From: an uncultured Candidatus Rokubacteria bacterium
GTDB taxonomy: Bacteria; Methylomirabilota; Methylomirabilia; Rokubacteriales; DASRDR01
Direction: 5' to 3'
NCBI GenBank assembly: GCA_963805625.1
Contig: CAWDVE010000014.1
Span: 148,299-212,298, forward strand
Length of the DNA: 64,000 bases
Position numbers and translations under genes: made by a program. The stretch's first letter is position 1, and the number at the start of each line of letters is the position of its first letter. The notes beneath the pieces were generated by a model that saw only the letters and a program-made list of their open reading frames with translations, searched no databases and was not told the DNA's origin. This document shows, piece after piece, positions 45,594 to 58,451 of the stretch.

Positions 45594-46046
45594 TCAGCCG
45601 ACCACCCGCTCCAGCCGTCGCGCGATCTCCGACTTCGGCTGCACTCCGACGATCCGGTCGACCTCGCGGCCCTGCTGGAGCACGAGCAGCGTGGGAATGC
45701 TCTGGACCCCGAACCGCGCCGCCGTCGCCGGGTTCTCGTCCACGTTCAGCTTCGCGACTCGGACACGTCCGGACATCTCCCCGGCGAGCTCCTCCACCAT
45801 GGGGGCGATCATCCGGCAGGGCCCGCACCACGGCGCCCACATGTCCAGGAGCACCGGCAGAGGCGAGCGCTCGACGTCGGCGGAGAACGTCGCGTCGGTC
45901 ACCGTGATCGGCGTCGAGTCGACGGGCAGGGGCGTCTTGCAGCGCCCACAGATCGGCGCCAAGCCCTGCGCCACTTTCGCCCACGGGACCCGGTTGGCCG
46001 CGCCACAGACCGGGCACCGGATGAGGCGCGTGTCTGGCGAGGGCAT
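45594..46046 (-). CDS. trxC: Thioredoxin 2 (zinc finger plus Trx domain)
   Basis: CPVC..CGRC N-terminal zinc motif and WCGPC active site. Confidence 0.93.
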   Translation of the reverse strand: MPSPDTRLIRCPVCGAANRVPWAKVAQGLAPICGRCKTPLPVDSTPITVTDATFSADVERSPLPVLLDMWAPWCGPCRMIAPMVEELAGEMSGRVRVAKLNVDENPATAARFGVQSIPTLLVLQQGREVDRIVGVQPKSEIARRLERVVG

Positions 46047-46338
46047 CACGTGGAGGCGGCGAGGCGCCGCGCCGCGTGGCCATACCGCCTCAAGAGAGCG
46101 CCCCTCCCGGCACGTCCGCCAGGGCGCCGCTCCCGCTGAAGGGCCACGTCCGACCGGAACGAACCATCGTGGCGTAGCGAACGCTCGAGCGTCGGTGGCG
46201 CATGATCCAGTGCCCGGTTCATTGTGCTCGCCCGGCGCCACCACGGTCAATCGCACGGCCTGCCAAGCGCCATGCCGCCTGAACACGCCCAGGGTCCAAT
46301 GGACGGCGGGCGCGGTCCGGTCTAGGGTCTGGCCGGGT

Positions 46339-47167
46339 GATGCGGCTCCTCTCGAGACGAACATCGCCCAGGCCACCGTCCGGCTGATCGCGGGATTTGC
46401 CCTGAAGGTGCTCGGCGCCATCGCCGTCTGGTTCGTCGCCCGCCGGGTCATCGCGCACGTCGCGCGGCTGGTCGTCCGAGGCTGGTCGTCCGCAGCCTCA
46501 AGCACCCCTTCGACCAGACGGTCGCCGGGTACATCGGAACGGCCGTCGCCGTCCTCCTCAACATCGGGATGATCCTCGGCATCCTCGGCCTGTTCGGCAT
46601 CGAGACGACGAGCTTCGCCGCGCTGCTGGCCGGCGTCGGGGTGGCGGTCGGGGCCGCGTGGGGCGGGCGGCTCGCCAACCTCGCGGCAGGCATCTTCCTG
46701 CTCATCCTGCGCCCTTCAAGATCGGCGACTTCATCCAGGCCGGCGGTATCATCGGCACCGTCCCAGGAGATGGGCCTGTTCGTGACCACCATCGACATGA
46801 TGGACAACGTCAGGACGTTCGTCGGAAACAACAAGATCCTGTCCGACAACATCCAGAACTTCACCGCGAACCCGTATCGGCGCGTCGACCTCGTGGCCCA
46901 GCTCCACAACGTGGTCGACCCCCAGGCGGCGGCCCGTCTCCTCAAGGCGCAGCTCGCCCGCATCCCGAACGTCCTCGCCCAGCCCGCGCCCGACGTCGAG
47001 ATTCTGAGCGTCAACCCCCTCGGCCCGGTCCTCGCGGTCCGGCCCTACTGCCACCACGAGCACTACTGGCAGGTCTACTTCGACACCAACCGGGCCATCC
47101 GCGAGTCCTTCGGCGAGGCGAGCTTCCCCGTCCCGAGCAAACGTGTTCGTGCGGAGCGCCGGCTAGC
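46339..47167 (+). pseudogene. MscS mechanosensitive channel with several frameshifts
   Basis: FGIETTSFAALLAG, LRPFKIGDFI, NNKILSDNIQNF, RPYCHHEHYWQVYFD spread over frames. Confidence 0.8.
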
Positions 47168-47258: not shown

Positions 47259-47963
47259 ATGGAATTCGCCGTCGAGCCGGACGTCTTCGCGCGCTTTCCA
47301 GGGATGCGTCTGGCCGTCGTCGTGGCGCGCGATGTGGACAACCGTGAAGACCGACCCCCGGTCGCCCGCGCATGGGCTGAGACATGGGCGGCGGCGGCGA
47401 GCGCGGCGGCGCCGTACGGGAACGCGCAGTCCCATCCGCGCGTTCTCGCGTGGCGGCAGCGCTTCCAGGCGATCGGTGTCTCCATGCGGCACTTCCCCAC
47501 GTCGATCGAGGCGCTCCTCCGGCGCGCGATGAAGGGCGGCGCCCCATTTCGCATCAACCCGGTGGTCGACTTCTACAACGGCGTGTCGCTCCGCCACACT
47601 GTGCCCGTCGGCGGCTTCGACCTGGACCGCGTGCCCGATCCCCTCGCCGTCCGGCTCACGCGGGACGGTGATACCTTCGCGGCGCTCGACGGCGACGGCC
47701 CGGTCCCCGTGCCGGCCGGAGAGGTCGCCTACGCGACGGGCGCAACGGTCCTCACCCGTCAACTCATGTGGCGTCAGTCCCGCGATGGGCTCATCCACCC
47801 GGAGACCCGCTCCGTGTTCCTCGTCTCCGAGAGCCTGCCCGAGGCGGGTGCCGGCCTGGCCGAAACCGTTCTCGACGAGCTCGCTGCCGGGCTCGGCCAG
47901 AACTTCGGGGCGTCGGTGCGTCGCTTCGTCGTCGACGCCGCCACGCCACGCATCGGCTGGTGA
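47259..47963 (+). CDS. Free-standing B3/4 (PheRS-beta editing-like) domain protein
   Basis: PTSIEALLRR, INPVVDFYNGVSL, GGFDLD, WRQS. Confidence 0.88.
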   Translation: MEFAVEPDVFARFPGMRLAVVVARDVDNREDRPPVARAWAETWAAAASAAAPYGNAQSHPRVLAWRQRFQAIGVSMRHFPTSIEALLRRAMKGGAPFRINPVVDFYNGVSLRHTVPVGGFDLDRVPDPLAVRLTRDGDTFAALDGDGPVPVPAGEVAYATGATVLTRQLMWRQSRDGLIHPETRSVFLVSESLPEAGAGLAETVLDELAAGLGQNFGASVRRFVVDAATPRIGW

Positions 47964-47965
47964 CA

Positions 47966-48299
47966 TGCGGGTGACGGACGAGGCGATCTCCATCGACCTC
48001 GCCCGACGACGCCGGCTTCTCGTCGCGACGCTGGCCGCCACCCGGCTCGCCGACGCCGCGGGCGCCGGACCCGTCCTCGCCGACTGCCGGCACTGGCTCG
48101 ACCGCGGGCCGGCGTGGGCCTCGTCGCGGTCGGCATGGCGCGTCAGGGCTTCGATCTCGAGCTCACGCGCTTCGGCGACGAGGGCTGACGCGCCACCTTC
48201 TCCCCGGCCGGGCGCGCCCACTCCGTCGCCGCCGGCTCGGCCTGGGAGGCCGCGCCCTGGCGGGCCGTCCAGCGAGCGGCCTGGGAGGCGCTCGGATAG
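47966..48299 (+). pseudogene. Disrupted conserved hypothetical protein (WLD..GMARQGFDL..PWRAVQRAAW family)
   Basis: One frameshift near 48105 and a TGA at 48186 in G*RATF, where Trp is expected. Confidence 0.6.
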
Positions 48300-48385
48300 C
48301 CAGAATTCGCACGGCGACGGCACGCGCGACGCGTCGCCACCGCCCGGCGGCCCGCGGGCCGCCGGCTCCTAACGGGAGAACGGCC

Positions 48386-49726
48386 ATGGACTACGATCTC
48401 CTCGTCATCGGCGCCGGCACCGCGGGCACGTTCGCCGCGCGCAAGGCGGTTGCGCTCGGCGCCCGCACCGCACTCGTCGAGCACGATGGCTTCGCCGGCA
48501 CCTGCCTCGGCACCGGCTGAATCCCCAAGAAGGTGCTGGTCAGCACCGTCGAGCTCGCGTGGCGCGCCGGAAGGGCCGGCGAGCTCGGGATTCGCGGCAC
48601 GGAGGGGATCGGGCTCGACTGGAGCGCCGTGATCGCCCGGAAGAACCGCCTGGTGGCGAGCTGGTCGGAGGGGAAGCCCGAGGCGCTCGAGCAGCAGGGC
48701 ATCACCGTGCTCCGCGGGCGTGCCCGCTTCGCGGACCCGCACGAGATCGCGGTCGACGGACGCCGCGTGACGGCGGAGCGGATCATCCTCGCCACGGGCT
48801 CCGCCCCCGCGCGGCCACCGATCGAGGGCATCGAGCGTGCGCTGACCAGCGATCAGTTCCTCGAGCGAACGACGCTCCCTGGCCGGCTCGTCGTGATCGG
48901 CGGCGGGGCGATCGGCATGGAGCTCGGCTTCGCGTTTGGCCGGGCCGGATCCCGCGTCACCGTGCTCCAGTCGGGCGCTCACGTGCTCCCGGCGGCGGAT
49001 GGCGAGGTGCGGGGGGCGCTCCTCGCACTGGCGGCCGACGCGGGGCTCGAGGTCCGGACCGGCGCGCGCGTCTCGCGGGTTGCGCCCGACCTGACGGTCG
49101 AGGCCGAGGTCGGCGGCCGCGCTGAGTGGTTCGCCGCGGATGCGGTCCTCGTCGCCACCGGCCGACCGCCCAACACGGCGGACCTCGGGCTCGCGGCGGC
49201 TGGTGTCGCGCTCGAGCGCGGTGCGGTGCGCGTCAACGAATTCCGGCAGTCGACGACCGCGCCTCACGTCTACGCGGCAGGCGACGTGACGGGCAGTCAC
49301 CAGCACACGCCGGCCGCGTGGTACGAGGGCCAGCTCGCTGCGGAGAACGCGCTCCAGGGCAACCGGCGGGCCGCCGACTTCAGTGTCTTCCCGACGGCCA
49401 CGTTCACGATCCCGGCGCTCGCCCAGGTGGGCCTCACCGAGGAGGCCGCCCGGGAGCGCGGCGGACGCGTCGCGGTCGGGCGGGCACCCTTCACCGACTC
49501 GACCGCGGCGAGCGTCCGCGCGGAGACCGAGGGGCTCGTCAAGGCCGTGTTCGACGAGCCTACCGGACGCCTGCTCGGCATGCACGTTCTCGGCTCCGGC
49601 GCCGAGGATCTGATCCACGTCGCCGCCGTCGCGATGCGGGCGGGCCTCACGCGAGAGGACCTCGCCGGCATGCACTACGTGTTCCCGACGCTCGCCGGCT
49701 CGGTCTTCGACGCGACGTGGCCGTGA
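48386..49726 (+). CDS. Class I pyridine nucleotide-disulfide oxidoreductase with Sec (CxxxxU, Sec45; 446 aa)
   Basis: RBS GGGAG; MDYDLLVIGAGTAG FAD motif; AGTCLGTG-U-IPKK with TGA at 48518-48520 in frame with ORF 48533-49726; IGGGAIG, ATGRPPN, AAGD. Confidence 0.9.
48532..48547 (+). promoter_or_regulatory. SECIS element
   Basis: GGUGCU-GGUC-AGCACC exactly 11 nt after the UGA, same spacing and loop as the E. coli fdhF SECIS. Confidence 0.85.
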
Positions 49727-49766: not shown

Positions 49767-51707
49767 CTAGAGCAAGCCCATCCAGCGCCAGGCCGGCACG
49801 CTGGCGCAGAGCGCGAGCACGCTCGCCGCACCGTAGACCAGAGCGGCCGGACGGGCGAGCCGGTGGTCGAACAGGCGGCCGCCCGTCCCGTGGTAGAGAG
49901 CGAGATAGGTGGTGCTCTGGTACGGGACGACGAAGCCGTTGCAGGCAATCGTCGCGACCACCGCGACCACCAGTGGGGAAATCCCGGCCGCCCCGGCGAC
50001 GGGCGACGCGGCGATCGTGAGCAGGGGCGCGGCCGCCTGCCAGCGGAGGACGAGGCTCGCCAGGAACCCGAGCACCGCAAGCCCGGCGATGAAGGCAACG
50101 GGCGCTCCGGCGAGGCCGCCCGTCACGTCGCCGACGAGGCCCGCGAGCCAGCGGTCGACGCCCGTCGCGGCGAGCACGTCGGACAGGCTCGCGAGCATGC
50201 CGAAGAAGAGCGCGAAGCTCCAGTTCACCCCGCGGAGGGTGTCCGCCGTCACCAGGCCCCCGGCGCCGAGCAGTGCGAGCGCGAGCACGGCGACCCAGGC
50301 CGGATCGATCCGGTGGAGCGGCTGCGTCGCGAAGCCCAGCAGGAGCCCGGCTCCGATCGCCAGACAGACGCGCTCCGCCCGCGAGGGGCGCCCGAGGAGC
50401 GCTCGCTGCATCGCGAGCACGCCCGATCGTGGTCCCCTCGGCGCACGCTCACCCGGGCGCGGCCGGTACAGCCAGAGGAGCGCCGCGAGCATCCCAGCGA
50501 GGAGGAGCGCATTGGCCGGCGCCGCGCACACGGCCCACCCGACCCACCCGGCGCCCGCCCGCACCTCGGCGGGCAGCACGGCGTGGGCGAGCACGGCCGT
50601 GGTCGAGCTGGTCATGAACACGGCGCCCATTTGGCCGAAGCCCACCAGGGCGGCCAGGGCCAGCCCGGCCGCGGGCCGGGAGCCGGGCGCATAGCCGAGT
50701 GCCTCGATCAGCTCGGCGAGAGCCGGCGCGAGGAAGGCGACGCGGCCGGTCGCATTCGGGACGGCCGGGCCGAGCGCGACCCCCGTCAGCGCGAGCGCCG
50801 CGGCCTGACCGGCGAAACCGCCCCGGGACCGGCCGACGATCCCGAGCGCAAGCCGATAGAGCAGGCCCGTCGAGGCCAGCACCCCGCCGAAGGCCAGCAC
50901 CGCCACGACGAGGACCCAGCTCGGCGTGGCAAAGCCCGCGAGCCCCACCCGGGCCGGCGCGACACCGCCAAGCGTCCACAGGGCGATCGTCAGGAGAGCC
51001 AGGACCCCCTCCGGCAGCACCTCGAGGGCGAGGACGGGCACCATGGCACCGAGCGTCCCGAGGGCGTGCCAGCCGGCCGGCTCCAGCCCCGCGGGGGGCG
51101 GTGTCACCCACGTCACGGCAAGGATCGACACGGCCAGCGTGCCGCCCAGGGCACGCCTGAGAGGTGAAACGGAACGGGGCTCCGCGACCACTCCAGCGGC
51201 AGCACCCCGCTCACCGCGATCACCCCCCGCCTCCGGATCCCGGGCCTCGACGGTCCCCACCCCGCGAACGTTGGCGAGCCACACGCGCTCGCTGAGCGTC
51301 GCGGCGATCGCGAGCGCGACGGCGGGCTCCTTGGCCACCAACCCGAGGAACCGGCCCCGCTCGAGCCTGAGCGCCTCGGCCGCCCCGTCCGCCCGCACCG
51401 TGGTCGAGCGAGGCCGGTTCGAGAGGAGGGCGATATCTCCGAACGTCGCCCCCCGACCCCGCGTCGCAAGCCGCCGGTCGACGCCGGTATCCGGCCACCC
51501 GACGTAGTCGCTGAACGCCCCGTGAAGCACCACGTAGAAGGCGTCCCCGGGATCGCCCTCGCGGAACACGATCTCGCCCGGCCCGAACCGGACTCGCTCG
51601 AAGTGCGCGGCCAGCTTGGCGAGGGCCACCCGGTCGAGCCCCGCGAACAGCGGCACTCCCGACAGGACGTGGGCGGGCTCGTCGTCGGGGATCGCCTGGC
51701 TCGGCAC
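49767..51707 (-). CDS. DASS/SLC13 anion transporter with N-terminal cyclic-nucleotide-binding domain
   Basis: FREGDPGDAFY..TFGDIALL..RPRSTTV, then PPAGL, VPNATGR and about 12 TM segments. Confidence 0.85.
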   Translation of the reverse strand: MPSQAIPDDEPAHVLSGVPLFAGLDRVALAKLAAHFERVRFGPGEIVFREGDPGDAFYVVLHGAFSDYVGWPDTGVDRRLATRGRGATFGDIALLSNRPRSTTVRADGAAEALRLERGRFLGLVAKEPAVALAIAATLSERVWLANVRGVGTVEARDPEAGGDRGERGAAAGVVAEPRSVSPLRRALGGTLAVSILAVTWVTPPPAGLEPAGWHALGTLGAMVPVLALEVLPEGVLALLTIALWTLGGVAPARVGLAGFATPSWVLVVAVLAFGGVLASTGLLYRLALGIVGRSRGGFAGQAAALALTGVALGPAVPNATGRVAFLAPALAELIEALGYAPGSRPAAGLALAALVGFGQMGAVFMTSSTTAVLAHAVLPAEVRAGAGWVGWAVCAAPANALLLAGMLAALLWLYRPRPGERAPRGPRSGVLAMQRALLGRPSRAERVCLAIGAGLLLGFATQPLHRIDPAWVAVLALALLGAGGLVTADTLRGVNWSFALFFGMLASLSDVLAATGVDRWLAGLVGDVTGGLAGAPVAFIAGLAVLGFLASLVLRWQAAAPLLTIAASPVAGAAGISPLVVAVVATIACNGFVVPYQSTTYLALYHGTGGRLFDHRLARPAALVYGAASVLALCASVPAWRWMGLL

Positions 51708-58374: not shown

Positions 58375-58451
58375 TGGTGAGGCGTGGTGGATTCGAACCA
58401 CCGACTCCCCGCTTAAAAGGCGGGAGCTCTGCCTGGCTGAGCTAACGCCTC
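58375..58451 (-). tRNA. tRNA-Lys (anticodon TTT)
   Basis: Acceptor stem GAGGCGT/ACGCCTC plus ACCA, D-arm AGCTCAGCCAGGCAGAGC, anticodon arm CCCGC-CTTTTAA-GCGGG, T-arm GGTTCGAATCC. Confidence 0.97.

Follow-up and report, generated by a model that had tools for sequence, protein, structure and literature searches.

Class I flavoprotein disulfide reductases have a CxxxxC redox centre, and it is its second Cys that contacts the flavin as the charge-transfer residue. Glutathione reductase (GR), dihydrolipoamide dehydrogenase (Lpd) and RclA share domain order, fold and the motif GxCxxxGCxPxK with the gene described here, but those enzymes keep a His-Glu pair and two Cys. Mammalian-type thioredoxin reductase (TrxR) is alike in being an FAD-dependent oxidoreductase with selenocysteine (Sec), but carries it on a C-terminal tail. 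The mercuric reductase MerA (TIGR02053; PDB 5x1y, 1zk7, 4ywo) resembles the reductase in fold (TM 0.89), in its N-terminal redox pair, in having an aromatic residue for the acid-base His and, at some relatives' loci, in occupying the slot behind mer genes; unlike MerA, the reductase has a flavin-side Sec and is without the C-terminal Cys pair, NmerA and Tyr264. The MerA of Gelidibacter salicanalis (GbsMerA; PDB 8k40; PMC10587081) is similar in that it has no NmerA, Cys tail or His-Glu pair, shows the PKK and TP motifs and is encoded behind merT/P. It differs in sharing only about 30–37% identity, in using Cys rather than Sec, and in its Asp47 and essential Tyr437, which are Ile and mostly Phe in the reductase family. 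The GbsMerA clade is a neighbour of that family, with a branching order between them that is not settled by the tree. Catalogued Sec flavoproteins (CoA-disulfide reductase, TIGR03385, with UGxP; type III sulfide:quinone reductase, NF049943; HdrA) are other families with other motifs, and none is listed with Sec in a CxxxxC centre. NF041115, named 'putative mercuric reductase' (UxxU), is a 74-position metal-binding domain and not a flavoenzyme; HMA domains like it, and MerB-like selenoproteins, are operon neighbours of relatives of the reductase. The MerB-like neighbour differs from SaoL in having LU, not CU, and scores 62.4 bits against a cut-off of 140.

The window, a 64,000-nt stretch of DNA from an uncultured Candidatus Rokubacteria bacterium, contains a gene that, by its sequence, is a class I flavoprotein disulfide reductase with the redox centre CxxxxU. 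The best-matching relatives also put the host near Rokubacteria (Methylomirabilota). The features of the locus are listed below in window coordinates.

47259..47963, + strand: B3/4-domain gene, upstream neighbour, thought to be unrelated to the system
48374..48378, + strand: Shine-Dalgarno-like GGGAG, 7 nt 5' of the ATG, from the sequence
48386..49726, + strand: predicted class I flavoprotein disulfide reductase gene, 446 aa with Sec45, from frame reading, domains, relatives and fold
48410..48427, + strand: FAD-binding GxGxxG (GAGTAG, residues 9-14), outside the standard ORF call
48503..48505, + strand: Cys40, substrate-side member of the redox pair (its first position); the relative L010 has TGA here (UxxxxU)
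48518..48520, + strand: in-frame TGA, codon 45, predicted Sec45, flavin-side member of the redox pair (its second position), from conservation in relatives
48532..48547, + strand: SECIS-like hairpin GGUGCU-GGUC-AGCACC, starting 11 nt 3' of the TGA, with the false GTG start 48533 inside it
48899..48916, + strand: NAD(P)H-binding GGGAIG (residues 172-177), from sequence and alignment
49301..49327, + strand: family motif QH(T/S)PxxWYE (residues 306-314), from an alignment of 70 members
49673..49699, + strand: HYVFPTLAG (residues 430-438), with F433 and G438 in place of the His-Glu pair, from the same 70 members
49767..51707, - strand: cNMP-binding DASS-type anion transporter, convergent downstream neighbour, thought to be unrelated

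From the ATG at 48386 the frame reads MDYDLLVIGAGTAG...AGTCLGTG-TGA-IPKK and, past the TGA at codon 45, a further 401 codons stay open to the TGA at 49724-49726. This final TGA is a true stop, and relatives end in TGA, TAG or TAA. A plain ORF call begins at GTG 48533, within the hairpin. An earlier, sequence-only reading had argued that this call misses the FAD-binding N-terminus, that AGTCLGTG-TGA-IPKK falls on the GGTCxxxGCIPxK redox motif, and that a hairpin GGTGCT-GGTC-AGCACC follows 11 nt after the TGA. All of this held: GAGTAG is recovered from the upstream ATG, frame reading and homologues agree on the redox motif, and the hairpin has the position and sequence proposed for it. No promoter or terminator consensus was found at the reductase locus, and the neighbouring genes (MscS, B3/4 domain, DASS transporter) carry little functional information. 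A small conserved upstream gene (47968-48300, +) has a frameshift and a TGG-to-TGA change here that are absent in relatives. In the MscS gene (46357-47147, +) the frame changes near 46480, and the opposite strand carries a thioredoxin gene (45597-46049, -); the synteny of both is retained in close relatives. The window also holds a tRNA gene at 58378-58451 (-), found with Rfam RF00005 and called tRNA-Lys by ARAGORN.

The TGA at the second redox Cys codon almost certainly encodes Sec. Among 58 genome loci returned, 19 are family members (55-90% identity), 18 of which have TGA with the same hairpin, while the remaining one (L019) has TGT at the Sec position and a broken hairpin. The 18 include L010, with TGA at both Cys positions (UxxxxU); in this gene (L010:5001-6338, genome G250) there is one clear hairpin only, 3' of the second TGA. 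The reductase gene was found in 19 of 251 Methylomirabilota genomes, always with TGA (19/19). It occurs in 17 of the 20 genomes of the host family and in none of 159 from a sister family. In the class to which G253 belongs, 7 of 251 sampled genomes have the gene, all seven with TGA. A metagenome scan covering 59 of 64 parts, with a pattern in which TGA, TGC and TGT were all allowed, found 121 matches at 120 loci, and removal of 9 unrelated matches left 112 from the family; TGA is present in 111 of these and the single exception is TGT. TGA and hairpin recur in over 100 distinct loci, with identities from about 53% to 90%, although the metagenome and genome loci are related and these counts are therefore not independent events. 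Cys forms nest among Sec forms in the tree. Reversion from Sec to Cys was not upheld as the direction of change, since the AU test leaves a Sec-only clade acceptable (p-AU 0.55).

The hairpin presumably matches the E. coli fdhF SECIS in spacing and loop. Across the genome, only 45 of 152,587 TGAs are followed by this hairpin geometry, a rarity that speaks for more than chance at the reductase TGA. All six stem pairs are present in 108 of the 111 metagenome TGA matches; the single TGT match has four, and the hairpin is broken in both of the two Cys forms. Because the scan pattern fixes amino acids, selection on the hairpin was tested at synonymous sites. Across 93 unique contexts the stem is encoded by AAG (93/93), GTG (93/93), AGC (93/93) and ACC (90/93); the Lys codon preceding the stem splits 50/43 and the Val codon of the loop 41/31/13/8. 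Among 114 other conserved columns, taken from 41 full-length genes, none reaches 95% for one codon. Judged by these codons, the hairpin is under selection, with the synonymous sites of the stem frozen and the loop free. The folding energy of the 58-nt region is no better than that of shuffles (z = 0.27), a covariation analysis of 15 hand-picked sequences found no compensatory stem changes, and the Rfam SECIS model has no match within the window. In the same genome, hairpins occur 9-14 nt after UGA in selD, in a MerB-like gene and in two glutaredoxin genes. Glutaredoxin-like genes with UxxC and a hairpin are located at G000:C13:454803 and C10:725102.

The genome of the window encodes tRNA-Sec (selC), selA, a Sec-type selD and selB. 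In the latter a homopolymer run is one base short, which splits the gene (G000:C21 about 224977-224988; L002 about 1485). This slip is absent from the contigs of all four soil runs (4/4), which restore the frame, and selB is over cut-off in 5/5 relatives; the frameshift is most likely an assembly slip. Of the 251 phylum genomes, 215 have selA (G034 and G076, marked unpublished, among them). Both selA and selB are over cut-off in the four TGA genomes tested (4/4), and neither has a match over cut-off in the Cys genome G251, whose completeness is not given.

It is very improbable that the TGA is a nonsense mutation, a sequencing error or a codon recoded as Trp or Cys. The assembly does have slips, that in selB being an example, and a genuine one-genome nonsense change from TGG to TGA lies 330 nt upstream of the Sec TGA. 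The latter, however, is common to more than 100 distinct loci of widely varying identity, together with selection on the hairpin. The upstream TGA provides an internal control, being TGG in all aligning relatives and absent from the hairpin matches. Recoding as Trp or Cys is opposed by the ordinary TGA stop at the end of the same gene and by the presence of tRNA-Sec. An assembled contig spanning 48300-48777 has two differing letters, and the TGA is not among the changes listed. Sec in the N-terminal redox centre, as first claimed from the letters of the window, is in agreement with TGA conservation, the frozen hairpin, the Cys forms with their broken hairpin and the Sec machinery. The Cys/Sec split with SECIS co-conservation and the sel genes, on which that reading made its claim depend, are both there: TGA comes with the hairpin and TGT with a broken one, and selA, selB, selC and selD are present in the window's genome. 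The evidence supports a real selenoenzyme family, uncatalogued, within a known enzyme class.

The domains of the protein (PF07992, PF00070 and PF02852, corresponding to FAD, NAD(P)H and dimerisation) are in GR-type order. A structure model of the monomer (mean pLDDT 80.6; residues 431-436 below 50) gave Foldseek TM values of about 0.9. Among solved structures, MerA 5x1y is the best match in both sequence and fold; Lpd follows closely, and neither the model nor Foldseek distinguishes the two. With all NCBIfam models the protein stays under the cut-off: lipoamide_DH has the top score (348.9 bits vs 408.8), and the scores are 343.7 vs 454.45 for TIGR02053 (MerA), 307.2 vs 480 for glutathione reductase and 234.8 vs 740 for RclA. 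In a tree of 148 of the 150 representatives at 50% identity (two fragments were excluded), the reductase family branches as a clade of its own (support 100), apart from those of MerA, Lpd and GR; among these representatives it is a small set of its own, consisting of truncated entries. The best 120 database homologues are all shortened to 392-399 aa and lack the redox motif, so that the family is hidden in annotation; in public records the truncated proteins go under the names E3 or glutathione reductase.

Positions 207/212 of the MerA redox pair correspond to C40/U45. Two further points read from the sequence earlier, FPT in place of HPT and the lack of a C-terminal CC as in MerA, are borne out by the alignment (F433-P434-T435, with G438 at the Glu position) and by the protein end, FDATWP. 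Among 70 full-length members, residue 433 is F in 66 and Y in 4, Gly438 (the Glu position of the HxxxxE pair) is present in 68, and the His-Glu pair is absent in all 70. Q306, W312, Y313, E314 and H430 are invariant (70/70). There is no further conserved Cys, 54 of the 70 members being without any Cys outside the redox centre. MerA Tyr264 falls in a gap of the alignment to 5x1y, and the adjoining column is variable. A mammalian-type C-terminal Cys-Sec tail is not present: several relatives have TAG or TAA where the last TGA stands, and no Cys precedes it. In the cofactor rules for such enzymes, an acidic residue some way past GGGAIG marks those that use NADH; here the sequence at that place is Q195-S-G, with no acidic residue and, in the family, usually no Arg. 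By the defining features of those enzymes, as far as they can be read from sequence, the reductase is not MerA, Lpd, GR or RclA.

A mer-module gene lies within 2.5 kb upstream in 10 of 121 distinct loci, a count in which many loci have just 168 nt of upstream sequence (7 short loci were omitted from the tree). All ten belong to deeper Rokubacteria branches, and there are none in the 21-row subclade of the window or in the 56-row second clade. The window's genome has a MerB-like gene and glutaredoxins only, unlinked, and no match to merT or merE. The operon in G229 consists of an ECF sigma factor, an anti-sigma factor, MerT-like/HMA (UxxU), MerE, a Sec MerB-like protein, a YruB glutaredoxin (UxxC), a zinc ribbon gene with three TGAs and, last, the reductase. 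Its MerB-like protein has Sec at the position of MerB Cys159, and a near-canonical merB is divergent from the operon. Variants of this gene order are found at G230, L086 and L091. In the G251 operon, arsR-merT-merP-glutaredoxin-merA, a canonical MerA occupies the reductase slot, and the Cys-form family gene is 5.3 kb away on the opposite strand. In G376 the slot is filled by a GbsMerA-type reductase, and a member of the reductase family is also present. Since G251 and G376 hold a family member as well as another mer-operon reductase, the family is not always a dedicated MerA. The region L266:3916-9375 (G376:C48) encodes an anti-sigma factor, a MerT-like protein with CU, an HMA domain with UxxC, the GbsMerA-type reductase and a peroxiredoxin-like gene with TGA. 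MerA was over cut-off in none of 21 host-family genomes. The gene context of relatives suggests mercury or soft-metal handling, and on this basis a mercury or soft-metal substrate is proposed.

A selenium-rich mer-like module is widespread in Rokubacteriales, usually without the reductase (L229:7570-11042 in G229:C3, L230, L237, L240, L244-L262). Its parts are MerR or ECF sigma/anti-sigma, a Sec MerB-like protein, YruB glutaredoxin with UxxC, MerT-like plus HMA (UxxU), and MerE; there is also a LysW-like double zinc ribbon, with Cys or, in G229, three TGAs. The MerB-like selenoprotein is found in 83 of the 251 phylum genomes, nearly always with TGA, and in 63 of the 159 sister-family genomes (G076 is one), where the reductase is missing; none of 20 MerB-like regions examined in the sister family has an adjacent reductase. 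This distribution rejects the MerB-like gene and the reductase as an obligate pair. The MerB-like selenoprotein at G000:C10:1625577-1626230 (L213) has an LU motif at MerB Cys159, and an 8-bp hairpin with the loop GGUC begins 11 nt after the UGA. A Pfam MerB search of five outside genomes gave no match, and its control was silent too. The adjacency of an arsenosugar glycosyltransferase (4 genomes, convergent), considered as a functional link, is read as ancestral synteny. In the second clade (L020, L021, L064-L135), the gene before the reductase is usually an MGH1/GH63-like glycoside hydrolase (34 loci clustered), and a putative transporter or membrane protein is usually downstream (18 loci).

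The best explanation, held tentatively and at somewhat less than an even chance, is a MerA-like Hg(II) reductase, an enzyme working like MerA without being one. SelB would read the hairpin and Sec would be inserted at the UGA. NAD(P)H (NADPH being somewhat more likely) would reduce FAD, which would open the Cys40-Sec45 selenenylsulfide. Hg(II) might be released by the MerB-like lyase or carried by the Sec-bearing HMA domain; the selenolate would pull it, or a similar soft metal, into the site from Se- or S-ligated carriers, so that the C-terminal Cys pair and the acid-base His would be unnecessary. The reduced flavin would then yield Hg(0) for release. In the lineage of the window the gene would have left the mer-type operon, and the enzyme would act unlinked on cytoplasmic metal-thiolate complexes. 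This explanation is favoured by F/Y at the position of the acid-base His, as in MerA, and by mer-type genes directly upstream in a minority of relatives. Against it are the lack of a mer gene at the window locus, the 111 of 121 loci that are unlinked, and the missing MerA residues Y264 and C628/C629. Mercury binds selenium very tightly and inhibits selenoenzymes, which may hinder Hg(II) reduction. GbsMerA reduces Hg(II) without NmerA and without a Cys tail (PMC10587081), but its Y437F mutant is inactive, and with Phe in 66/70 family members this counts against an Hg(II) reductase. In archaeal MerA the Phe is accompanied by Glu (PMC4500099); that Glu is Thr/Ser in the reductase family.

An unlikely but credible role is that of an accessory redox recycler, reducing a small disulfide, selenenylsulfide or diselenide that has a good leaving group and so keeping glutaredoxin and the other Sec proteins of the metal-stress module reduced; it would help against mercury or thiol stress with no metal reduction. 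The YruB glutaredoxin is a constant operon member, in Sec and Cys versions, the PKK and TP motifs are GR-like, and a selenolate leaving group would probably not need the missing His. NADPH-supplying neighbours are found at some loci (transketolase, transaldolase, 6-phosphogluconate dehydrogenase), and in G251 and G376 family members stand alongside another mer reductase. No candidate low-molecular-weight substrate was identified, however, and the mer-like module does without the reductase in the sister family. The buried N-terminal centre of the GR fold is generally unreachable for thioredoxin-fold proteins, and this also counts against a recycler.

Rather improbable is a general oxidant or quinone reductase (RclA- or diaphorase-like) for HOSCN, chloramines, peroxides or quinones, in which the exposed Cys/Sec pair or the flavin would do the reducing, with mer linkage as a local recruitment. 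Most loci are indeed without mer genes, and some have oxidative-stress neighbours (MsrPQ-like, AhpC/TSA, thioredoxin). RclA, a bare CxxxxC flavoprotein, can perform such reactions, and Sec enables HOSCN reduction by mammalian TrxR (both PMC9335216). But RclA retains the His-Glu pair, its NCBIfam cut-off is not reached, and the neighbours differ between clades. That the enzyme is an Lpd or GR of the ordinary kind in which Sec has taken the place of Cys is highly unlikely. Such an identity would agree with the top-scoring NCBIfam model and with the names of the truncated proteins in public records, but the reductase is below both cut-offs, its family lacks the His-Glu pair throughout and has a clade distinct from those of Lpd and GR, none of 97 neighbours scanned is a lipoyl-domain or E2 gene, and two HPT-type Lpd genes are encoded separately in the genome.

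In section 7 of a 2026 review (PMC13188914), the catalogue of 119 prokaryotic families contains no Sec in a CxxxxC flavin centre. Term searches of a 2022 review, of deep-Sep, SelCysML and the BSepDB article with its supplement, and of the Olavius paper and the SAO preprint found none in this centre. No published report of the reductase family was found in a search that left subscription papers, bioRxiv supplements and the BSepDB database itself outside, and the one entry returned by a motif search of the literature was an unrelated rhodanese. In two other lineages it is the first Cys codon that is TGA (UxxxxC). One of these (L022:2113-3507, L026:5001-6389) is from Actinomycetota with selA/selB and adjoins glycogen-debranching genes. 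The other, the P0131 group (L268-L272), combines UxxxxC with PKK and has TGA in 5/5 matches; both of its complete members have a C-terminal CC like that of MerA. A broader proposal, speculative and unlikely as a whole, is that Rokubacteria may have an all-selenium Hg pathway, in which a Sec-MerB lyase and a UxxU carrier would lead to a selenolate-flavin reductase invisible to merA surveys, and that at least three separate lineages would have Sec in the GR-fold CxxxxC centre, at either position.

None of the selenoprotein catalogues consulted lists the flavin-side Cys of this well-studied enzyme class as a Sec site. With a selenolate-flavin centre that occurs naturally, the role of the flavin-side residue can be tested directly, and natural CU, UC, UU and CC versions are available for comparison. 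Genomes with merB but no merA are an open question (PMC8261052). If the reductase is an Hg(II) reductase, it would be one answer to these merB-without-merA genomes in abundant soil bacteria, and selenoproteins would be handling a metal that usually poisons them.
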